Of a stretch of DNA of 20,000 bases, positions 1,891 to 20,000 are shown piece by piece. The stretch's first letter is position 1, and each line of letters begins with the position of its first letter. The notes beneath the pieces are model-generated. The model was not told the origin of the DNA, ran no database searches, and saw nothing but the letters and a program-made list of their open reading frames with translations. A program made the position numbers and the translations under genes. The stretch lies in IMG/VR virus record IMGVR_UViG_3300025009_000079; one strand, given 5' to 3'. Source of the DNA: an uncultured virus (IMG/VR IMGVR_UViG_3300025009_000079) (Duplodnaviria; Heunggongvirae; Uroviricota; Caudoviricetes).

Positions 1891-2226
1891 TCACTTTTGG
1901 TTTTTGTAGCCAAGGTATTTTTCATATACCGTGTCTGCATTCTCTTGGGACCGATCTTTGGCGGCCGACAGCATGGTTCTTGACATTCTTCCCCATGACT
2001 TAACGGCGTTGCACCCCTGGCAAGACAGAATGCAGTTACTGGTTGTCCTGGAACCACCTTTACTTATCGCCACAATGTGTTCGACGACCGGCATTGTTGT
2101 TTCTGTGGATACCTTCATCCCACAATACTGACACACACCGTGGTATACGTCCATGAGTGCGAGCAGCAAGGGCTTATGTTGATGCCGTGGGACAATTTTG
2201 AGTACATGGTAGGTTTCTGATCTCAT
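1891..2226 (-). CDS. HNH endonuclease
   Basis: CQYCG...VEHIVAISKGGSRTTSNCILSCQGCNAVKS; GGGGAG RBS. Confidence 0.9.
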   Translation of the reverse strand: MRSETYHVLKIVPRHQHKPLLLALMDVYHGVCQYCGMKVSTETTMPVVEHIVAISKGGSRTTSNCILSCQGCNAVKSWGRMSRTMLSAAKDRSQENADTVYEKYLGYKNQK

Positions 2227-2271
2227 AAGACAGCTCCCCTTTTTGAAGAATATTGTTCAATTCCCTCTTAA

Positions 2272-2301
2272 AGAATACTAATGCGGACCACGCTTCGTCA
2301 A
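2272..2301 (-). promoter_or_regulatory. sigma70-type promoter for the HNH/terS-like unit
   Basis: TTGACG-18 bp-TATTCT on the minus strand. Confidence 0.55.
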
Positions 2302-2378
2302 CCATCTCCTGTAAACCAGCACCACAAGCCAATCCGCAACTATTTTCATCCCAACTACCATTTTGCTGCATTTTTTGC

Positions 2379-2406
2379 TTGACAGCATTACAGCATGTGT
2401 TATCTT
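2379..2406 (+). promoter_or_regulatory. sigma70-type promoter for the plus-strand gene array
   Basis: TTGACA-16 bp-TATCTT with extended -10 TG; overlapped by an ACAGCAT direct repeat. Confidence 0.7.
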
Positions 2407-2576
2407 GTGCTCAACACGGTAAGAAAAGCCAAGCGGCACGCGAAAACAAGCCTCCGCACTCTTGGCTGGCTCTCTAACAACCGAAAAGCTCATCACCTGG
2501 CGGCAGACAAGCCCGGGTGTCCATCCTGCCGAGGCCGACCGGGGCCGTAGCAGTAGCGGGGTAGGGAAAGAAGAGA

Positions 2577-3277
2577 TTGTGTGTTTTGTTAAGGGCTCAG
2601 ACAAAAAGGAAGGGGAATCACATGAGCATCAATTACGATCCGGGCAGAGTGAACAGAGAGCAATGGCTTACAGACGCAATCACCATGCTTCGTCCCGATT
2701 TCAAGGCCATTGGGTTACAGATACCGGCAGAGGTAAGGGTGTCTTGTGGATGGAGCTCCAAGGGTGCGAAGGGTAAGGCCGGATTGTCGCGTATCGGGGA
2801 GTGCTGGTCTCCTGCATCCTCTTCGGCCGGCTACCATGAGATTTTCATCAGCCCCATAATTGACGATGCCTTGCTTGTGGCCGCAACCCTGGTGCATGAG
2901 CTTGTCCATGCTTGTATAGGCGTCGAGCAGAAACACGGTAAGGTATTTGGCAAGTTCGCCCGCAAGATTGGCCTCAAAGCTCCCATGAAGGCAACCACGG
3001 CGGGGCCGAAGCTAACCGAGCGGCTGACCGAGCTGGTCAGAATTAACGGCGAGTATCCACATGCGCGCATGGAAGCACTCACAAACGGCAAGAAAAAGCA
3101 GGCAACGAGGATGCTGAAAGTGTCTTGCCCAACTTGCGGCTACACGGTCAGAATCGCGGCCAAGTGGCTTGAGGAAGGGTTTCCGACTTGTCCTTGCGGT
3201 ACGGAAATGAAGGCGGATGAGGTCGAAAAATAGGGTGTTTACACGACTCATTTTCGAGCCCTGAATAAAGCACACAA
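2577..3277 (+). repeat. 22-bp imperfect inverted repeat (arms 2577-2598 and 3256-3277) enclosing the SprT-like gene
   Basis: TTGTGTGTTTTGTTAAGGGCTC / GAGCCCTGAATAAAGCACACAA: 19 Watson-Crick pairs, 2 G-U, 1 mismatch. Confidence 0.85.
2622..3233 (+). CDS. SprT-like zinc metalloprotease with C-terminal Zn ribbon
   Basis: HELVH (HExxH) plus downstream HGKVF; CPTC...CPC; AAGGAAGGGG RBS before ATG 2622. Confidence 0.85.
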   Translation: MSINYDPGRVNREQWLTDAITMLRPDFKAIGLQIPAEVRVSCGWSSKGAKGKAGLSRIGECWSPASSSAGYHEIFISPIIDDALLVAATLVHELVHACIGVEQKHGKVFGKFARKIGLKAPMKATTAGPKLTERLTELVRINGEYPHARMEALTNGKKKQATRMLKVSCPTCGYTVRIAAKWLEEGFPTCPCGTEMKADEVEK

Positions 3278-3282
3278 CGAGA

Positions 3283-3562
3283 ATCATCCTTTAGTGGATG
3301 CCATGGAGAAAGAGAGAACGAGCCATGATAACAGTGTACGCATTGAATAATGACCAGGGCAAACTCATGTTTGAATTCATTAACCGGGGAGAATATGCCG
3401 AGCCTCAGTATGCGGCACGGGCACGGGACAAGCACTCCGGGAAGTTTTACAAAGTGGAGACGGATCACCTTTCCGAAGTCCGGCGCTTGGCTGTTGACTT
3501 CGGGCACGACATTGACCTTTAGCGCCAACAAACCCCAGCCATGGCATGCACCGAAGGATGAT
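3283..3562 (+). repeat. 24-bp imperfect inverted repeat (arms 3283-3306 and 3539-3562) enclosing ORF 3325-3522
   Basis: ATCATCCTTTAGTGGATGCCATGG / CCATGGCATGCACCGAAGGATGAT: 21 Watson-Crick pairs, 1 G-U, 2 mismatches. Confidence 0.85.
3325..3522 (+). CDS. hypothetical protein (65 aa)
   Basis: Purine-rich leader before ATG 3325; fills the space between the inverted-repeat arms. Confidence 0.65.
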   Translation: MITVYALNNDQGKLMFEFINRGEYAEPQYAARARDKHSGKFYKVETDHLSEVRRLAVDFGHDIDL

Positions 3563-3595
3563 CTATAACCCACTAACAGCCAAAGGAGAGGGACA

Positions 3596-3796
3596 ATGAC
3601 ACACGCACCCAAGTTTTGGAGAGAGTATGTTCGGTCGGCATCTGATGGAGATATCGACCGAATGGCAAGATTTGATCATCTGATCCTTGACGGATTCGGT
3701 GGGGAGAGCGCTGCATACAAGGCAATGGAGGGCAGAATGTATGCTCACAAACACGCTCTCAAGGAAGCTCGTGAAGCCTGCAAGCGAATTGCCTAA
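3596..3796 (+). CDS. hypothetical protein (66 aa)
   Basis: AAAGGAGAGGG RBS. Confidence 0.7.
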   Translation: MTHAPKFWREYVRSASDGDIDRMARFDHLILDGFGGESAAYKAMEGRMYAHKHALKEAREACKRIA

Positions 3797-3925
3797 AACC
3801 GCAAAGGAGAGGACACTGGCGCAAGCCTTTCTGATTCTCCGCCTGCCCGCCCTGGCAACGGGGCGGATAGGAAAAGAGGCGAGAGGGCAGACGACAACAA
3901 GCAACCATATCGAAAGGGGGATCAT

Positions 3926-4078
3926 ATGGCAGAGTTGACACCACGAGACATCGAAATACTGAGAGGCTCCATTAACCGCGCAGTGAGGATTGATCTGGAC
4001 GAAGACGCGAAGATTAAGGAGCTGTTTCTCCTCTACCTGGTCACGGAGCCCATGGGTGAGTGCGTGAAAACTTCCTGA
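3926..4078 (+). CDS. hypothetical protein (50 aa, not in ORF track)
   Basis: GAAAGGGGG RBS; MAELTPRDIEILRG...; TGA lies inside the CCTGA of the next hairpin. Confidence 0.65.
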   Translation: MAELTPRDIEILRGSINRAVRIDLDEDAKIKELFLLYLVTEPMGECVKTS

Positions 4079-4164
4079 CTTGCTCCTGCCCATCGGCTCT
4101 GGTCGGTGGGCGGCATGGAAGCCATGAAGATGACGACAACCAACAACCAAAAGGAAGGGGAATT

Positions 4165-4704
4165 ATGAAACTCTTACAAAAAGTAACGGAATGGAAAGAA
4201 TACACGGAGCACTCTACACGTTGTAGAATGCGCGTAACTTACGGTTTCGATGTCGCTTTCGCCCAACGCTACAAACAAGCTCCATGCTTTAGCATCACTG
4301 CCGACATCGAGCGCAAGAGACGTACTAAGTGGCTCGAAGATTCTTTCGGGTGCTTGCATGACGAAATCCGCGCACATTTCCCGGAGTTGGCATCCCTCAT
4401 CAAATGGCATCTGGTAGCGTACCCATTCAAGCCTATGCACTATCAAGCGAATGCGCTTTATTGGCTCGAAATACACTTGGGATGCTCGAAGTATGGTAGT
4501 ACTCAAAGCAATGTCGATCCATTAGAAGCTTTCAAGAGTCAAATTGTTTTCGGGATACTGCCGGACGACAAGGAGCGCTTCGAGCAGGTATTAGTGGATT
4601 TTGTGGCAAGCAGGGATCTAAAAACGCCGCTTTATGCGTGGTTGGAATCGCGCATTCCACAAGCTCAAGTAGTGTTCGAGCGCGAAATGAAAGAGCTGGA
4701 TTGA
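4165..4704 (+). CDS. hypothetical phage protein (179 aa)
   Basis: AAGGAAGGGG RBS before ATG 4165; GCLHDEI...FPEL...KWHL...PMHY.ANA.YW. Confidence 0.8.
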   Translation: MKLLQKVTEWKEYTEHSTRCRMRVTYGFDVAFAQRYKQAPCFSITADIERKRRTKWLEDSFGCLHDEIRAHFPELASLIKWHLVAYPFKPMHYQANALYWLEIHLGCSKYGSTQSNVDPLEAFKSQIVFGILPDDKERFEQVLVDFVASRDLKTPLYAWLESRIPQAQVVFEREMKELD

Positions 4705-4827
4705 TTGAAATGAGTCGAGTCGAGTAACCTCCTAACTTTTTGCCTGCCGTAACCCTGCCCTGATGGGGTTGCTGGCAGGAATGGAGATATGCGGAGTAAA
4801 CGACAACTTAACGAGAGGGAGACGACG

Positions 4828-5193
4828 ATGAAAAAATCCGAATTGACAATCGTAACGGGAGAACGGCATCGGCTAACACCATACGCATGGGGAGACAGGT
4901 CCATCATGGTGGACGAGGATGCAGTGACCGAAAGCACCAGAGAGGCATTTGGTTTGGATGAAGCTCCCGACCCCGACTCCGATCAAAACGACAAACCGGA
5001 GTGGGTACAGGTTTATCGTGACGCCAACGGCCAGCACTACGCCGTGACCGATGCCGACGTGCGGCGCGATGCCTACCGGAAAACGGAAATCCCTGAATAT
5101 TGGGCGAAATGTGATGACCCAACGCAGCCCGATCAATACGGATCTGTTTGGGTGGCTCAGTCGTGGTCCTCTTTTGATGACGAAGAAGAATAA
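4828..5193 (+). CDS. acidic hypothetical protein (121 aa)
   Basis: GAGAGGGAG RBS before ATG 4828. Confidence 0.75.
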   Translation: MKKSELTIVTGERHRLTPYAWGDRSIMVDEDAVTESTREAFGLDEAPDPDSDQNDKPEWVQVYRDANGQHYAVTDADVRRDAYRKTEIPEYWAKCDDPTQPDQYGSVWVAQSWSSFDDEEE

Positions 5194-5289
5194 CGCAAAT
5201 CCTGATTTCCCCCTACGCTCTCTTAACCGGGAGCGCGGGGAGAAGGCAGGCGAAATTGACGGTAACCACAAACGAGAGGGAGAAAGGAA

Positions 5290-5547
5290 ATGAGCGAGTA
5301 TCAATTTCTATGCGGATGGGGAAAGCTAAAAAACCGGCGCGCCGTCGAGCGGATCGCCCGGAAACACGGCGCACAATACATACTCTACACCGAGCCGCAA
5401 TGCTCCTGCGGGTATGGGTGTCCATCCGGGGAATGCGAAAACAGTACGCGGCACTGGTTTGCGGCCGAAAACATGGGAACGACATTCGATGATTCCCGCG
5501 CATTCGCCGTTGAAACGGATCTCCGGGCGGCTGGAATTATTGAATGA
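5290..5547 (+). CDS. hypothetical protein with Cys cluster (85 aa)
   Basis: RBS within the repeat leader; CSCGYGCPSGEC. Confidence 0.75.
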   Translation: MSEYQFLCGWGKLKNRRAVERIARKHGAQYILYTEPQCSCGYGCPSGECENSTRHWFAAENMGTTFDDSRAFAVETDLRAAGIIE

Positions 5548-5640
5548 TTTCCTGATTTCATCGGCCCCGTCAGGGATGGCGGGGCTTATTGAAGGCAGGC
5601 GAGGCGGCATGATAACCACAAACGAGAGGGAGACGAGAAA

Positions 5641-5811
5641 ATGAAGATTAAATTGGCCCAATACGAATTGGAAATGGACCAGGACTGCAAAAACATCGCG
5701 GATGGTTGGGAGATATTCCCTTCGGCAGTCAACGAGCTCCACATTTCGCCCACTGATTTTACCCGTGCGGAGCAGACCACGGACGATAGCATCATCGTCC
5801 GTGAGGAGTAA
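5641..5811 (+). CDS. acidic hypothetical protein (56 aa, not in ORF track)
   Basis: GAGAGGGAG RBS; MKIKLAQYELEM...IIVREE*; fills the gap between two hairpin elements. Confidence 0.7.
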   Translation: MKIKLAQYELEMDQDCKNIADGWEIFPSAVNELHISPTDFTRAEQTTDDSIIVREE

Positions 5812-5904
5812 ATCCTGATTTCCCCCTACGCTCTCTTAACCGGGAGCGCGGGGAGAAGGCAGGCGAAGCAGACGACAACCACAAAAAGGAAGGGAGAACG
5901 ACCA

Positions 5905-6183
5905 ATGCAATTCTCAGCACTCGGCCTTCAAGCCGATCACGACGAAAACGGAATCCTGCGGGTCAACGCAGGCGGTGAAACCAATCACGAGATGCCCATG
6001 ACCGGCATCGACGCAAACGAACTGGCGCGGGACTGCTACTTTTATCTCCTCGAAGGGGACGTTCCCGAAGAATGGCTTGAGGCGCACAACATGGAGAGCA
6101 GGATCTCCGATGCGCTCCAGACCGAAAGTCGGGATGCGCTGGTGAAATTAGAGGAAGAGGTTCTCGACTTCTTCCGCGACTAA
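5905..6183 (+). CDS. acidic hypothetical protein (92 aa)
   Basis: GGAAGGGAG RBS; rich in D/E. Confidence 0.75.
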   Translation: MQFSALGLQADHDENGILRVNAGGETNHEMPMTGIDANELARDCYFYLLEGDVPEEWLEAHNMESRISDALQTESRDALVKLEEEVLDFFRD

Positions 6184-6191
6184 CCCACCGA

Positions 6192-6207
6192 GCCCGCTTC
6201 GGCGGGC
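6192..6207 (+). other. GC hairpin with UUCG tetraloop, no U-tract
   Basis: GCCCGC-TTCG-GCGGGC just 5' of the RHH gene RBS. Confidence 0.6.
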
Positions 6208-6221
6208 GGAAAGGATAACCC

Positions 6222-6410
6222 ATGGAAGAGAAAACCCAGGTAACCGTGAGACTCCCAGACAGTTTGGTTTGGGGGCTCAAAAAGGAAGTGGTCCGGCAAC
6301 GGATTAACCTCCAGACCGCCGTACAGCGCGCTATCGAGCAGTGGCTCGCTTCAACAGATGGAGAGAAAGACCGTTTCGAGGGTCTCCCAGTGCCCAGGGA
6401 GGGCATGTAG
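6222..6410 (+). CDS. ribbon-helix-helix (CopG/Arc/Omega-like) DNA-binding protein
   Basis: TQVTVRLPDSL beta-strand pattern followed by two helices (LKKEVVRQ; LQTAVQRAIEQWL). Confidence 0.7.
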   Translation: MEEKTQVTVRLPDSLVWGLKKEVVRQRINLQTAVQRAIEQWLASTDGEKDRFEGLPVPREGM

Positions 6411-7687: not shown

Positions 7688-7745
7688 CCCAAACAAGGAG
7701 GGCCATGGAGAATTTCTTGCAGTGATCCTGTGTTAGTTGATACAA

Positions 7746-7852
7746 GTGGATTTGATATTTTGTTGGGGGATCGGGACGCCGGTCAAGGTTCTTGCCCTTC
7801 TCGCAAGGACCACCCCAACATCCACAATCTTTCAACTGAGAAGGAGTTGAGA
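7746..7852 (+). ncRNA. C4/CI-antisense-like three-way-junction RNA plus RBS target hairpin
   Basis: P1 7761-7768/7813-7820 (plus 7746-7750/7821-7825); P2 7769-7784; P3 7787-7811 with loop CCTTCTC; target hairpin 7830-7852 with loop GAGAAGG. Confidence 0.65.
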
Positions 7853-8493
7853 TGTCAAACATTACCGTTAATGATCCCCGCTTCAAGCAGTATGGCCTAG
7901 TGCCAATTCGTTCAAATGTATGTGTATCAATTGACATTAATGCCACCAAATTGGTTTATGGTGATTGTGATAGGGAACAGAAGCATGTTCCTTGGTTCTC
8001 ATCAGATACGATGTCTCAAAGCAACGTACCTGGGATTGACTTTTATATAGAAAAGGAAGATGTTGACTTTCTGATTGCCAAATATCACAAGGACGTAACT
8101 GAGTCCATTAATGAAGTGCTAGATGAATGCGACAATTGCATCGAAACTGGATTACTAGAATACAGAAAGAAAAGAAAAAGAAATAGGACTTCTAAATTGA
8201 TATCTTCTGCCCTTTCTCCAACGAGACACGCAGGCCACATATATGTTATGCGGGCAGGCAACACATCCATGTTCAAAATTGGATACACAACAAGGTCTCC
8301 ACTGTCACGGATGCGTGATATTCAAACAAGTTGCCCGTATGAACTTGATCTCTATTCAGGGTTTGAAACCGATGACTGTCTTGTCTGTGAAGCTAGGATG
8401 CACGGAATTCTGTCTGAATATAGGACCATTGGAGAATGGTTTGATGCCGACACTGAAACAATAGATTCAGCTATTGATTCCATGTTCCGATAG
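7852..8493 (+). CDS. GIY-YIG superfamily (T5orf172/MUG113-like) domain protein
   Basis: GHIYVM...FKIGYTT...RMRDIQTSCP...EARMH...GEWF; visibly more AT-rich than its neighbours. Confidence 0.85.
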   Translation: MSNITVNDPRFKQYGLVPIRSNVCVSIDINATKLVYGDCDREQKHVPWFSSDTMSQSNVPGIDFYIEKEDVDFLIAKYHKDVTESINEVLDECDNCIETGLLEYRKKRKRNRTSKLISSALSPTRHAGHIYVMRAGNTSMFKIGYTTRSPLSRMRDIQTSCPYELDLYSGFETDDCLVCEARMHGILSEYRTIGEWFDADTETIDSAIDSMFR

Positions 8494-11352: not shown

Positions 11353-12217
11353 CGCGATTCTCCCTCAGTTTTTTGGCCTCCAAGCATGCCCTAATGGCTG
11401 CATTTCCACAATCACTCATTGTATCAACATATCCAGTTGGCTTGTGTCGTGAATAGTTGCCATTTAATACCTTGCTCATGCTCTCTTTTTTTACCAACCA
11501 TCCAAGGTTTGCAACCCACTTGCGGTCATTTTGTCCTAAAAGAAATGGCATGTTGGAAACGTCCAAAAAGAACTCTTTCCACCAATTAAGATCCCGTCGG
11601 TTCTTGTCCTCGTCCCATCTGGCTTTCAGATTTTTAGTGTTTACGTCGCCCCACACCCTAACCGATGGCAATGAAGGCAATAGAGCGTGGTAAAGTTCGA
11701 TGATTTTCTTGTGTGGGCAACCTGACCTTGACGCCGCTGAACGGCAACTTCCCGGACTATACAGATTCTCATGGTCTTCATGGTTTTCATGGTCTTCATG
11801 GTCCTTTGTGTTACTTGGTTGTTCCTTGGTTGTTACTTGGTTGTTACTTGGTTGTCCTGTTGGTTGTTCTTGTGAATCCGATAACTCTGCATAACTGCGC
11901 CAATTTATTACAGTAATTATGCTGTAATGGATGTTATTTTGGATGTTAACATTTCCTATCTTTTCTAATTTCAAGAGCCTCTTGTACGTCGATATTGGTT
12001 TCTGCTTCAAAATGTGTGCAACTGTATTACGCCCGAAAAGTAATTGCCCGACATCCAAAAAAACTTCCGTTTCTGCTCTCCCAGTAGATACATGAACCCA
12101 CCCTGGTTTGCTTCTGGCATGAAGGAGAATGTAGGACCAGAGGTGCCACAATGCGGCATCCCTGAAAACTTGGCTATCTCTGCTTTTCCTCCACAGCGGA
12201 ACAAAACCGCGATCCAT
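11342..12217 (-). CDS. phage replication initiator (lambda O-analogous)
   Basis: N-terminal GFVPLWRKS..LWSYILLHA winged-helix-like domain, low-complexity repeat linker, C-terminal FLLGQNDRKWVANLGWL..KVLNGNY. Confidence 0.8.
   Translation of the reverse strand: MDRGFVPLWRKSRDSQVFRDAALWHLWSYILLHARSKPGWVHVSTGRAETEVFLDVGQLLFGRNTVAHILKQKPISTYKRLLKLEKIGNVNIQNNIHYSIITVINWRSYAELSDSQEQPTGQPSNNQVTTKEQPSNTKDHEDHENHEDHENLYSPGSCRSAASRSGCPHKKIIELYHALLPSLPSVRVWGDVNTKNLKARWDEDKNRRDLNWWKEFFLDVSNMPFLLGQNDRKWVANLGWLVKKESMSKVLNGNYSRHKPTGYVDTMSDCGNAAIRACLEAKKLRENRDGA
11769..11972. other. putative phage replication origin (iterons plus AT-rich tract) inside the initiator gene
   Basis: 4x 9-bp TCATGGTYY (11769-11804); 4x 11-bp TGTTMCTTGGT (11809-11852) plus a degenerate copy; AT-rich tract at about 11900-11972. 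Confidence 0.7.
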
Positions 12218-12223
12218 ATCGCC

Positions 12224-12565
12224 TCATGCTTTCTTGTGTGTGGCTAATAGTTTGGAAATAAAACCGTAAAGCAGAGCACCAATTTCAGGGTAATAAACAG
12301 GAGGGGCATGCGACAAAATAGTCAGTATGTGCTGTTGCATCTCAGAGGCCCAACAATGGCAATTCTCACAAAGGCAATGAAGCATTTGATCCTCATATTC
12401 CCACGAACTTAAGCCTCTCAGATATGCGCCATGATGAATATGGAGGGTTGATGTTGTGTCTCCGCATCTATCACATGCGAATCTGGACACTTGCATCCGC
12501 CGTAATCTACACTTTTGCCACCGAGGATCTTTGAGAAGTTCAAAATAGGTAGGCTTCTTACTCAT
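12224..12565 (-). CDS. HNH-like endonuclease domain protein
   Basis: YFELLKDPRWQK.R...CDRCG...LHIHH...WEY...LCENCH. Confidence 0.8.
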   Translation of the reverse strand: MSKKPTYFELLKDPRWQKCRLRRMQVSRFACDRCGDTTSTLHIHHGAYLRGLSSWEYEDQMLHCLCENCHCWASEMQQHILTILSHAPPVYYPEIGALLYGFISKLLATHKKA

Positions 12566-19207: not shown

Positions 19208-19287
19208 TACTTTCCACCCTCCTTCCGTTCTCGCGTGAACACTGTCACCCGGTCAAGTCCAAGCTTTTCAGCCAGTCTCGGGATCAC
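19207..19287 (-). CDS. mini-ORF (26 aa) or gene remnant
   Basis: GGAGGAGG RBS, GTGA and TAATG coupling; ends RKEGGK* like the next gene. Confidence 0.4.
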   Translation of the reverse strand: MIPRLAEKLGLDRVTVFTRERKEGGK

Positions 19288-20000
19288 GTTCCGTCCTCCT
19301 CCCCGATGACCTCCACCTTGCGGCATCGCACCTTCGTAATGTCATGCGGGTACACGACAAAATCATCGGGATGCACGAGGCACTTTAGTGTTTTGCCACA
19401 ATTGTAGCTTTGAGCAAGCGATTTGGTGGGAGAAAGATGAAGCCCACCGCCGCATTGTCGCTCATGATTCGCATCCCAGTCAGGGCACTCCACGGTGCCC
19501 TCATACTTGATAGTACCACTCCAGAAATCTGTCATGTCATCTTTGACGGATTTATAGAGCATCATCCTCCCATTGTCGCAGTGTTGTATGTTCTTGGAAT
19601 AGATGTCCATAAAAGACTGCTTGTCGTGTGTTGCCACCGGAACATTCATGCAAGTTGCCGTTGCATCTTGTTCGTTGGGAATTAGCTTACAGCCAATCCC
19701 TATGGCTACGGCAAACTGTTTTAATTTGATCTTTATTTCCGAAAACGCCCGAACCACACAGTTCTCCCATGCCACCACGGAAGAGTTCCCCCTTGCCACC
19801 ACGGAAGAGTTCCCCCTTGCCACCACGGAAGAGTTCCCCCTTGCCTCCACGGAAGAGTTCCCCCTTGCCACCACGGAAGAGTTCCCCCTTGCCTCCACGG
19901 AAGAGTTCTCCCATGCGTCCACGGAAGAGTTCTCCCTTGCCTCCACGGAAGAGTTCCCCCTTGCCTCCACGGAAGAGTTCTCCCTTGCCTCCACGGAAGA
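19284..20000 (-). CDS. octapeptide-repeat phage protein with DUF7666-like C-terminal domain (5' partial)
   Basis: (V-x-A-R/W-G/E-N-S-S)n, then LYK...CGGGLH...KVRCRKVEV. Confidence 0.8.
   Translation of the reverse strand, partial: SSVEARENSSVEARGNSSVEARENSSVDAWENSSVEARGNSSVVARGNSSVEARGNSSVVARGNSSVVARGNSSVVAWENCVVRAFSEIKIKLKQFAVAIGIGCKLIPNEQDATATCMNVPVATHDKQSFMDIYSKNIQHCDNGRMMLYKSVKDDMTDFWSGTIKYEGTVECPDWDANHERQCGGGLHLSPTKSLAQSYNCGKTLKCLVHPDDFVVYPHDITKVRCRKVEVIGEEDGT
19761..20000. repeat. 24-bp coding tandem repeat, at least 10 units
   Basis: GTTCYCCCWTGCCWCCACGGAAGA repeated to the window end. Confidence 0.95.

Follow-up and report, generated by a model that had tools for sequence, protein, structure and literature searches.

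In the rRNA precursor, helices form from both flanks of a long functional RNA, and a double-strand-specific cut frees the enclosed part. Two such helices succeed each other in one transcript. In phage T7, the early polycistronic mRNA is interspersed with helices that span about two turns and are imperfect at the centre; the first of them precedes the first gene and belongs to the leader. The intervening sequence (IVS) in the 23S rRNA of Coxiella burnetii is removed by RNase III. MITEs and mobile insertion cassettes consist of inverted ends around a passenger gene, without a transposase, and the attC sites of integrons have an R''/R' core of GTTRRRY.

The early regions of phages are the chief nursery for ORFans and anti-host genes, and how new genes are inserted without harming operon regulation is poorly understood. 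In T4-type phages, conserved intergenic stem-loops termed PeSLs occur where small non-essential genes are located, and through them ORFans are inserted, deleted and replaced among close relatives (PMC2839356). Stems that enclose longer RNAs have been described for 16S and 23S rRNA, which are flanked in their precursor by RNase III processing stems (PMC6582327), and for the C. burnetii IVS in helix 45 of 23S rRNA, which bears an S23p ORF (PMC4990558). A full-text literature search, with most subscription journals outside its coverage, turned up no account of stems that enclose genes in phage operons.

Two adjacent gene-enclosing stems

The window analysed here, a stretch of 20,000 nucleotides from an uncultured groundwater virus, contains two consecutive genes that are each enclosed by a long-range inverted repeat (Table 1). 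The arm coordinates and the pairing that had been proposed by the original prediction were reproduced exactly, and the two arm pairs are present next to each other, 5 nt apart, as claimed. Stem A pairs over 22 positions (19 Watson-Crick (WC) pairs, two G-U pairs and one mismatch) and stem B over 24 (21 WC pairs, one G-U pair and two mismatches). The arms of A and B are unrelated in sequence to each other, and on both sides they are located outside the ORF and its RBS. In RNAduplex, helix B is lengthened by two further pairs, leaving a gap of 2-5 nt between the helices. The predicted RNA helices of 22 and 24 bp (27 bp after extension) would be intramolecular dsRNA helices of at least about 20 bp, and both closing helices are retained when transcripts of 298 nt and 721 nt are folded, in the MFE structure as well as in the centroid.

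Table 1. Features of the two-stem region, in window coordinates. X1 and X2 are stems of the relative L005; L013 is a further relative.
Feature	Position	Strand	Evidence or remarks
Sigma-70-like early promoter	2379..2406	+	TTGACA, 16 nt, TG-TATCTT; 10/12 matches, extended -10
5' leader, patchily conserved	2413..2576 (start approximate)	+	Ends ..AAGAGA right before stem A
Stem A 5' arm (slot 1)	2577..2598	+	Pairing; column-by-column alignment with L005 stem X1 5' arm, likewise after AAGAGA
Slot 1 cargo: SprT-like gene, 203 aa	2622..3233	+	Own RBS ~2605-2616
Stem A 3' arm	3256..3277	+	Pairing; begins 1 nt beyond the SprT homology block
Spacer CGAGA between helices A and B	3278..3282	+	Resembles AGAGA preceding stem A
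Stem B 5' arm (slot 2)	3283..3306	+	Inner end GCCATGG; pairing; likeness to L013 and L005 X2
Slot 2 cargo: 65-aa ORFan	3325..3522	+	RBS-like GGAGAAAGAGAGAA upstream; ORF list
Stem B 3' arm	3539..3562	+	Inner end CCATGGC; pairing; 23/24 identity to L013 arm
Next gene, not stem-enclosed	3596..3796	+	150/200 shuffles equal its flank pairing

A single promoter-like site is located upstream of both stems, and from this promoter onward no terminator-like site was found on the + strand before 8677. The SprT-like gene matches the Pfam SprT-like family below its gathering score (E 4.8e-5) and PHROG 6361, a family of unknown function, with an E value of 2.4e-48. The slot 2 ORFan has no Pfam or PHROG family, matches only itself among 5.8 billion clusters, and has no relatives among the viral contigs searched. 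Elsewhere in the window, a scan with Pfam and PHROGs revealed RecT, an SbcC-like ATPase (PHROG 77, E 2.6e-53) and an MBL-fold hydrolase, and no transposase or recombinase was found among the 34 ORFs scanned. Rfam returned no family at E <= 1 for the window, rRNA included, and the INPHARED phage collection contained no match for positions 2300-3900. The replication protein used as a query found no relative in viral contigs, and a leader-pattern search returned one unrelated contig lacking a BLAST match. A further search recovered the L013 contig alone.

A sliding RNAduplex scan with 40-mers returned low-energy hits by the thousand, a large share of which fell within coding sequence, and was replaced by ungapped or BLAST-type inverted-repeat scans evaluated against shuffled sequence. 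When ungapped pairs at distances of 20-1500 were scored across the window and in 60 dinucleotide shuffles, A scored 45 and B scored 51 under DNA scoring. The window itself has three hits of at least 45, compared to shuffle means per window of 0.15 hits at this threshold and 0.017 hits at 51 or above; a score of 45 was attained in 9/60 shuffles and a score of 51 in 1/60. With G-U scoring the values were 55 for A and 56 for B, and 55 was attained in 8/60 shuffles. Because shuffles reach its scores, stem A on its own is borderline at the scale of the window. In a gene-bracketing test, the 70 nt before the start codon were paired with the 70 nt after the stop codon. Against the shuffled background for which the original prediction had called, neither flank pairing was attained in 200 shuffles (0/200 each for A and B). 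Ten of the 11 other + strand genes tested gave no significant result, and the sole exception (gene 4789-5193, score 40, 0/200) reflects cross-pairing of local hairpin elements.

The original prediction had also taken the G-U-compatible differences between arms as a sign of pairing in RNA or single-stranded DNA. Such an excess is present, with three of the four transition differences in A and B being G-U-compatible on the + strand and five of six when L005 is added, but it is not significant (one-sided p ~0.11) and the argument is weak. An arm-internal start codon in frame with the cargo was considered as well and rejected, as a homologous ATG is in frame in three of the four stems, which is not significant.

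Related stems with other contents

Stems of this type are known from three genomes only, namely the window and the relatives L005 and L013. The SprT protein of L005 is 89% identical in amino acid sequence to that of the window. At the DNA level the two genes are 79% identical, and this homology is confined to positions 2605-3255, the interior of arms A. The SprT gene of L005 is located outside any stem; its flanks are unpaired (z -1.5), and 79/200 shuffles do equally well. Instead, L005 carries two arm pairs, X1 (3269-3297/3626-3654) and X2 (3660-3683/3928-3951), around two other small genes. These stems are likewise adjacent, enclose the first two cistrons, and directly follow a leader homologous to that of the window (101/169 aligned columns identical); neither was matched by any of 200 shuffles in the gene-flank test. 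In L013, stem B takes the form of a local hairpin, its loop 22 nt long and its predicted energy -32 kcal/mol, located behind the same promoter, and slot 1 is missing. The L013 leader matches that of the window in 87/170 columns, its TTGACA ... TATCTT pair was read by eye, and the sequence aligns with the promoter region of the window.

Across these stems, the cargo is a SprT-like gene, one of three unrelated ORFans, or nothing. Among 13 relatives of the X1 cargo in viral contigs, none (0/13) has a tight enclosing repeat. Comparison of the three genomes shows the stems to be tied to the site rather than to the cargo, at least as judged from sequence. On the same grounds, the units of exchange appear as complete translation units comprising an RBS, an ORF and a short tail, with breakpoints a few nucleotides from the inner ends of the arms. 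The original prediction had suggested gene capture into hairpin loops, and this idea gains from the L013 form with its 22-nt loop, from the unrelated gene in L005, and from the SprT homology that stops inside arms A. Its tie to the hairpin elements further downstream did not hold, as the arms are unrelated to these GC-rich elements and no further copies were found.

The arms of stem B and of the L013 hairpin are identical at 21/24 positions on the 5' side and at 23/24 on the 3' side. They share the G-U and G-G sites, the third imperfect site is still mismatched (A-C in the window and C-C in L013), and in L013 an A-T pair takes the place of the innermost G-C through changes in both arms. Because the arms are so similar, stem B may have been exchanged recently between the window lineage and L013. 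Window B and L005 X2 are more distant, with a stem identity of ~78%. Of their 23 aligned pairs, 15 are identical, three have changed on both sides from one WC pair to another, one two-sided change turns a mismatch into a WC pair, three are changed on one side, and one pair is unchanged on the 5' side. A 1-nt indel is mirrored in both arms, and the inner ends of B and X2 carry the palindrome CCATGG at both sides of the cargo.

For slot 1, the 5' arms of A and X1 are identical at 11/22 positions, and six pairs are altered on both sides and still form WC pairs; the helices keep 19/22 WC pairs in A and 23/27 in X1. Eight of the 11 changed 5'-arm positions are WC-paired in X1, for which a binomial expectation (p = 0.3) gives ~0.004 if the stems are orthologous. 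The compensatory changes that the original prediction had looked to in homologous phages are thus present in both comparisons, and by this alignment arm changes between relatives appear largely compensatory.

Among the public sequencing runs found to contain the stretch, none is an RNA run. Natural variants were read from joints in the assembled contigs of four groundwater metagenome runs, in which starts, ends and rare forms are invisible. Contigs of runs X7 and X3 join position 2560 to 3276 or 3279, and cassette A with both arms is therefore absent from them. In the run X7 contig, the leader is followed by eight other letters and then by ..AACGAGA and stem B. Contigs of runs X3 and X5 skip positions 3603-3824, a segment bounded by RBS-like direct repeats. 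Another cassette deletion between direct repeats joins 5572 to 5898, and a run X5 variant joins 3307 to 3581 with 32 other letters between. All of these joints are skips, some of which include the whole of cassette A, and no DNA inversion was seen among them.

At more distant SprT loci the arrangement differs. L004 carries a perfect 19-nt inverted repeat (3964-3982/5917-5935) around SprT and a serine recombinase gene (Pfam Resolvase, E 2.2e-32). Nine distant loci besides L004 and L005 have no repeat enclosing SprT, and in L003 a 14-nt perfect repeat pair starts after the gene. High-scoring pairs in L002 were rejected as counterparts, as they are situated in a GCGGCG-rich coding repeat and are not comparable.

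Competing explanations and the slot model

Chance complementarity is a practically negligible source of the arm pairs. Stem A alone is borderline window-wide under both scorings, but no shuffle equals either pair in the flank test, pairs A and B adjoin each other, L005 repeats the design with homologous arms, and L013 repeats stem B. This recurrence in relatives already refutes the chance reading. It is also very improbable that site-specific recombination at the inverted arms turns each gene around as an expression switch. Inverted repeats of 22-29 bp do have the size of invertase sites, and the repeat of L004 encloses a serine recombinase gene, but the 34 window ORFs scanned include no recombinase, and two recombinase specificities would be required because the A and B arm sequences are unrelated. 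Moreover, all of the joints listed for the four runs (contigs only, rare forms dropped) are skips and none is strand-changing, and a 22-nt loop as in L013 would be senseless as a switch.

Two further explanations place the history of the stems in DNA. The arm-gene-arm modules could be cassettes moved by recombination, or by a transposase or recombinase acting on inverted ends, with RNA pairing being incidental. We consider this unlikely, although the absence of cassette A, arms included, from contigs of runs X7 and X3 fits it, as do the (A/C)GAGA motif at both flanks of this cassette, the perfect 16-nt direct repeats around X2 of L005 (3641 and 3951), the further direct-repeat deletions in the region (3602->3825 and 5572->5898), and the RecT and SbcC-like proteins encoded by the phage. 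However, stem B is retained with three different loop contents, the SprT homologue of L005 and 13/13 relatives of the X1 cargo lack arms, B has no flanking duplication, and the scanned ORFs include no transposase or recombinase. There is also no common end sequence for one enzyme, because every arm is single-copy and each cassette has arms of its own. Similarly doubtful is an origin of the stems as insertion relics, in which a local leader palindrome was split by a gene landing at its tip and the arms are functionless and not yet decayed. A possible route would be cutting of the tip by a hairpin-specific nuclease and repair by annealing, and the phage encodes an SbcC-like protein, an MBL-fold hydrolase and RecT. 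The breakpoints at the inner ends of the arms, the CCATGG on both cargo sides in B and X2, as a duplicated palindromic target would give, and the unsplit form in L013 agree with this scenario. Against it, the four split stems of two phages keep 82-92% WC pairing in a leader with 60% identity, and the slot 1 arms still pair at 50% identity. Retained pairing despite divergence is unexpected without selection or continual correction.

The explanation that we favour, at about even probability, is that two structure-conserved stems behind an early promoter are slots whose loop content turns over, and we infer for them an RNase III-type role in mRNA. In the early polycistronic mRNA, the stems would form functional helices, each about two turns long and imperfect at the centre, and the double-strand-specific RNase III of the host would most likely cut these helices. 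Cleavage would split the transcript into leader, cistron 1, cistron 2 and the remainder, and each enclosed mRNA would end up with paired, protected ends. 16S/23S precursors, ORF-bearing rRNA intervening sequences and T7 early mRNAs are processed in this manner. The loop would be a permissive site for new genes because only the stem matters. The anatomy is consistent with such an rRNA-like RNase III scheme, given predicted helices of 22-34 bp with imperfect centres, arms outside ORF and RBS, one promoter, no + strand terminator-like site between, and both helices retained in the predicted folds. A stronger form of this model, in which early-leader processing helices are natural plug-in expression slots that accept any complete gene and excise it as a self-contained mRNA with paired ends, which might even be ligated to a circle, for insulated expression, seems rather improbable at present.

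Several considerations temper the slot model. Compensatory change in the arms would be equally expected if a palindromic protein site co-evolves with its protein, if a DNA hairpin undergoes templated correction, or if the cassettes A and X1, with an arm identity of only 50%, are unrelated and not orthologues. A loop of 232-657 nt covered by ribosomes may hinder long-range pairing. In addition, the gain or loss of cassette A including its arms and the 16-nt direct repeat of X2 look more like insertion of a unit than like fixed slots.

If a conserved stem with a free loop is the correct description, it would explain a hot spot of gene turnover together with a standard RNA context for each newcomer, and excision by long-range stems in the manner of rRNA would be extended to protein-coding messages. 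If plug-in slots are real, they would parallel in nature what RNA-processing insulators do in synthetic operons, and they would make the acquisition of ORFans cheap. If the stems act solely in DNA, they would still be precise markers of module boundaries for studies of phage mosaicism.

Comparison with known systems

Within the window each arm matches solely its partner. At 70% identity, a search of the window and nine loci for further arm copies brought up the orthologous hairpin of L013, three weak single hits (16-17 matches) and nothing else. Because the arms are single-copy in the sequence searched, the stems do not represent a dispersed MITE. The outcomes that the original prediction had set against itself, arms that are ends of a known MITE or insertion sequence or borders of an invertible segment, did not emerge: the arms occur once, the window ORFs scanned contain no transposase or recombinase, and none of the joints listed for contigs of four runs is strand-changing.

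Cassette A resembles MITEs and mobile insertion cassettes in that a passenger gene is located within terminal inverted repeats and the whole unit is polymorphic for presence and absence. In contrast to those elements, within the window the ends are single-copy and unshared and have no cognate transposase, and the same ends recur at one site with other cargo or none. No clear target duplication is present either, as A is flanked by AGAGA and CGAGA (4/5 identical), B has none, and the 16-nt repeat of X2 exceeds usual duplications. For a Hin/Gin-type system, a recombinase gene in or beside the segment is found in L004 and not among the window ORFs scanned. Judged by eye, the sequences at the outer arm ends do not fit the attC core, and the window scan revealed no integrase.

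Whereas PeSLs are promoter and terminator units that surround genes as direct repeats and recombine as such, A and B each enclose one gene between unique inverted arms, with one promoter-like site upstream. The PeSL-like part of the window is instead formed by the direct-repeat deletions 3602->3825 and 5572->5898.

The local form of stem B in L013 resembles RNase III sites of the T7 type, which are local intergenic hairpins, whereas the stem halves in the window and in L005 are 232-657 nt apart and hold a whole gene in the loop. The 23S rRNA IVS likewise has a small ORF in the loop of a stem within a larger transcript. That element is located in rRNA, of which none was detected in the window, and carries one gene family, while A and B are located in an mRNA leader and have diverse cargo at fixed stem positions. 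The stems that flank 16S and 23S rRNA share with A and B the arrangement of long-range helices around an enclosed RNA, two in succession. They differ in what is enclosed, which in the phage operon is a protein-coding cistron, here within predicted helices of 22-34 bp.

Stems around the first cistrons of the small-gene block

Two consecutive genes had been predicted to be looped out, each by its own long-range inverted repeat, and both arm pairs were recovered, with 21 of 22 positions paired in stem A and 22 of 24 in stem B. As claimed, the SprT-like gene with its RBS lies within arms A and the next gene within arms B. In both cassettes (arms plus enclosed gene, or cargo), the left arm is located 5ˊ of the RBS and the right arm 3ˊ of the stop codon. 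The arm pairs are five nucleotides apart, and helix B gains two pairs in RNAduplex. Non-paired positions are central in all helices; pairing is perfect over the outermost 5-8 and the innermost 7-13 pairs, a pattern that is partly a consequence of how the arms were delimited. No further copies of the arms were found in the window or the relatives' loci, and no relatives of the 65-aa gene were found in any search made.

Features of the window and of the stems in its closest relative (L005)
Feature	Position	Strand	Remarks
74-aa ORF	2253-2477		Overlaps promoter-like site and leader start; probably not a gene
Promoter-like site	2379-2406	+	TTGACA, 16 nt, TG-TATCTT
Small-gene block	2.4-8.5 kb	+
Stem A (slot 1)	2577-2598/3256-3277		Over 22: 19 Watson-Crick (WC), 2 G-U, 1 mismatch
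SprT-like gene, stem A cargo	2622-3233	+	Pfam E 4.8e-5, under gathering score; PHROG 6361 E 2.4e-48, function unknown
Stem B (slot 2)	3283-3306/3539-3562		Over 24: 21 WC, 1 G-U, 2 mismatches
65-aa gene, stem B cargo	3325-3522	+	ORFan
GC-rich local hairpin elements	5197-5272, 5548-5643, 5810-5885; also 3797-3928, 4705-4791, 6184-6224		Occupy most intergenic gaps of + strand block
Replication block	~10.7-20 kb	-	O-like replication protein, RecT, SbcC-like ATPase, MBL-fold hydrolase
Tandem 11-nt and 9-nt repeats in O-like gene	11798-11872, 11766-11801		Probably origin iterons
33-nt inverted repeat	12573-12605/12682-12714		Just upstream of HNH gene 12224-12565; probably origin-associated palindrome
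At least 8 tandem copies of 24-nt unit	19712-19999		Up to window end, within - strand ORF 19284-19994 (weak PHROG matches to RIIB-like proteins)
L005 stem X1 (slot 1)	3269-3297/3626-3654		29 nt, 86%
L005 stem X2 (slot 2)	3660-3683/3928-3951		24 nt, 92%

The window is phage DNA by its Pfam and PHROG gene content, and the public runs containing it are groundwater metagenomes. Because a promoter-like site precedes the first cistron and its leader of ~165 nt, and no terminator-like sites occur on the + strand before 8677, stems A and B look to bracket the first two cistrons of an apparent single early operon. Other window genes include two HNH genes and one T5orf172 gene. Within 7688-7854, a repeated RBS motif (..AACAAGGAGGGCCATGG) recurs ahead of an ORF of only 6 codons; a long imperfect hairpin (-58 kcal/mol) and then the T5orf172 (GIY-YIG-like) gene (7852-8493) follow. 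The arrangement suggests that an insertion of the homing-endonuclease type has taken the place of a gene.

An ungapped, window-wide scan compared all pairs 20-1500 nt apart with 60 dinucleotide shuffles. Under DNA scoring, A's score of 45, equalled or exceeded by three pairs in the real window, was reached in 9/60 shuffles (mean 0.15 pairs), and B's score of 51 in 1/60 (mean 0.017 pairs). Under G-U scoring, 55 was reached in 8/60 shuffles, and thus stem A by itself is borderline against window-wide chance. A sharper flank test took 70 nt on either side of each gene, upstream of the start and downstream of the stop, and paired them with each other; here the shuffled background proposed in the original prediction as a check matched neither A nor B (0/200 each). 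Ten of 11 other + strand genes were unremarkable, and the exception (4789-5193) reflects cross-pairing of neighbouring local hairpin elements.

Loop contents and arm changes in relatives

The closest relative, metagenome contig L005, encodes a SprT protein with 89% identity, and its DNA homology to the window is limited to 2605-3255, the interior of arms A. Its leader is alignable to the window leader up to a common AAGAGA (101/169 columns identical) and is followed by the adjoining stems X1 and X2, whose cargo, two small genes, is unrelated to that of the window. Neither stem was matched in 200 shuffles of the flank test; the SprT gene of L005 lies 3ˊ of both and is not enclosed (z -1.5; 79/200 shuffles equal it). 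IMG/VR contig L013 has a matching TTGACA/TATCTT promoter, a homologous leader and an adjacent HTH gene with 64% identity. Slot 1 is absent there; stem B closes a loop of just 22 nt, forming a plain local hairpin (predicted -32 kcal/mol), and the first gene after it is a different one. For slot 2, three contents are on record: the 65-aa ORFan of the window, a 72-aa ORF of L005 unrelated to it, and the 22 nt of L013. For slot 1 there are two, SprT and, in L005, an ORF of 95 aa. These three genomes are the only ones from which the stems are known.

When compensatory changes were sought in these homologous phages, the arm changes proved to be largely mirrored in the partner arm. Between B and L013, the innermost G-C changes to A-T, neither the G-U nor the G-G site differs, and a mismatch persists at the third position that is not paired. 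Between B and X2, there are three two-sided WC-to-WC changes, one two-sided mismatch-to-WC change, three one-sided changes and a 1-nt indel mirrored in both arms. A and X1 are taken as orthologous on the basis of position and 50% identity; their 5ˊ arms are identical at 11/22 positions, six pairs are altered on both sides and still WC, and WC pairs are kept at 19/22 and 23/27 in the two helices. Stem-enclosed genes are real and recurrent. The alignments show two site-bound stems with conserved pairing that persist while loop contents change and, by the same comparisons, complete translation units that turn over in the loops, with breakpoints at the arm inner ends. The X1 cargo has relatives in viral contigs; no tight enclosing repeat surrounds any of the 13 examined, and cargo, as judged from sequence, does not bring its own arms.

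Other repeats occur at these loci. A perfect 16-nt direct repeat (TGAGTTTTGCAGTCCT; L005 3641-3656 and 3951-3966) brackets the X2 cassette, and its left copy coincides with the outer part of the X1 3ˊ arm, so the X1 5ˊ arm could also pair beyond that cassette. In an unrelated viral contig, L027, a 162-nt inverted duplication of coding sequence (1185-1345 and 2071-2231; 77% identity) flanks a relative of the first L005 cargo gene. The 5ˊ arm inner ends resemble the start regions of this phage (..GGCC(TC)ATGG; window 3298-3327, L005 3293-3319 and 3680-3703, and the L013 hairpin). The inner-end ATG is in frame with the downstream gene in 3/4 stems, which is not significant; in window stem B, where the homologous ATG does not match the reading frame, another ATG 5 nt upstream does.

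Natural variants in metagenome contigs

Contigs of four public metagenome runs were aligned to window 2000-6000. One contig from run X7 joins 2560 to 3276 through 8 other letters and continues across the stem B 5ˊ arm and 10 nt into the loop, and one from run X3 joins 2560 to 3279. Both are without cassette A, including both arms; the whole cassette is gained or lost. In that X3 contig (depth 7.2), a second joint links 3305 to 3538, B arm to B arm, and one low-depth contig from run X5 (depth 2.4) has 32 letters in place of 3308-3580. Because loose ends in runs X5 and X8 match L013 sequence (by eye), the gene-less form of slot 2 occurs in further samples. The original prediction had suggested checking reads for DNA inversion or excision. 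All joints listed for the assembled contigs of the four runs are skips, with no change of strand, and give inversion of the A and B segments no support. In L004, a distant relative (Thermoguttaceae MAG), a perfect 19-nt inverted repeat (3964-3982/5917-5935) surrounds three ORFs: one SprT-like, one for a serine recombinase (Pfam Resolvase E 2.2e-32) and one other. The locus is prophage-like, and 3964-5935 is a candidate for DNA inversion.

Deletions 3602->3825 and 5572->5898 lie between direct repeats, which are RBS-like sequences and copies of the GC-rich hairpin element, respectively. Gene 3596-3796 is missing from the X3 and X5 contigs with the first joint, and its breakpoints in RBS-region direct repeats (CAAAGGAGAGG..; window 3563-3602 and 3797-3830) suggest loss through recombination between ribosome-binding sites. 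X3 and X5 contigs also skip 5573-5897 between GC-rich element copies. Two of the element copies, 613 nt apart in direct orientation, share 93% identity, and L013 has one with 83% identity; they probably represent a family separate from stems A/B, acting in recombination and/or as RNA.

Possible mechanisms and known systems

In our judgement, the stems are probably selected to pair within a single-stranded nucleic acid. Mirrored arm changes also arise from co-evolving protein sites and through templated correction in DNA hairpins, and the proposal that G-U differences point to RNA is weak, the strand bias (5/6) being not significant. Counted against a site-bound RNA stem are the movement of cassette A with its arms, the direct repeat around the X2 cassette, the 50% arm identity of A and X1, and the small number of genomes, three, that carry the stems. 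An RNA mechanism is plausible but unproven. In such a mechanism, the stems would function in early mRNA, and cutting within them would free each enclosed cistron with paired ends. The stems fit RNase III substrates because they span 22-34 bp (about two helical turns), have an imperfect centre, occupy leader or intercistronic positions and are kept in predicted folds; RNase III specifically is a tentative, somewhat doubtful assignment. B and X2 both have the palindrome CCATGG duplicated at their inner ends. Speculatively, genes might enter loops when a hairpin tip is cut and then repaired by annealing, which would fit the inner-end breakpoints, this duplication and the SbcC-like and RecT genes.

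An integron cassette was rejected for A and B, as was identity with PeSL (PMC2839356); the PeSL-like part of the window is the nearby direct-repeat deletions. A MITE or mobile insertion cassette was also rejected, as ends are not shared, extra copies are absent from the window and the relatives' loci, and no transposase was found among the 34 window ORFs scanned. Nor did the arms, single-copy in these sequences, prove to be the termini of a known MITE or IS, the origin that the original prediction had set against its own. The early mRNAs of T7 are processed by RNase III, giving paired ends. In rRNA precursors, stem cutting releases the enclosed part with paired ends (PMC6582327). Some intervening sequences bear an ORF (PMC4990558). 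They are likewise stem-released. By analogy, the arrangement appears most like stem excision of the rRNA and intervening-sequence type combined with T7-type punctuation, with the difference that here whole genes lie in the loops of site-bound stems.
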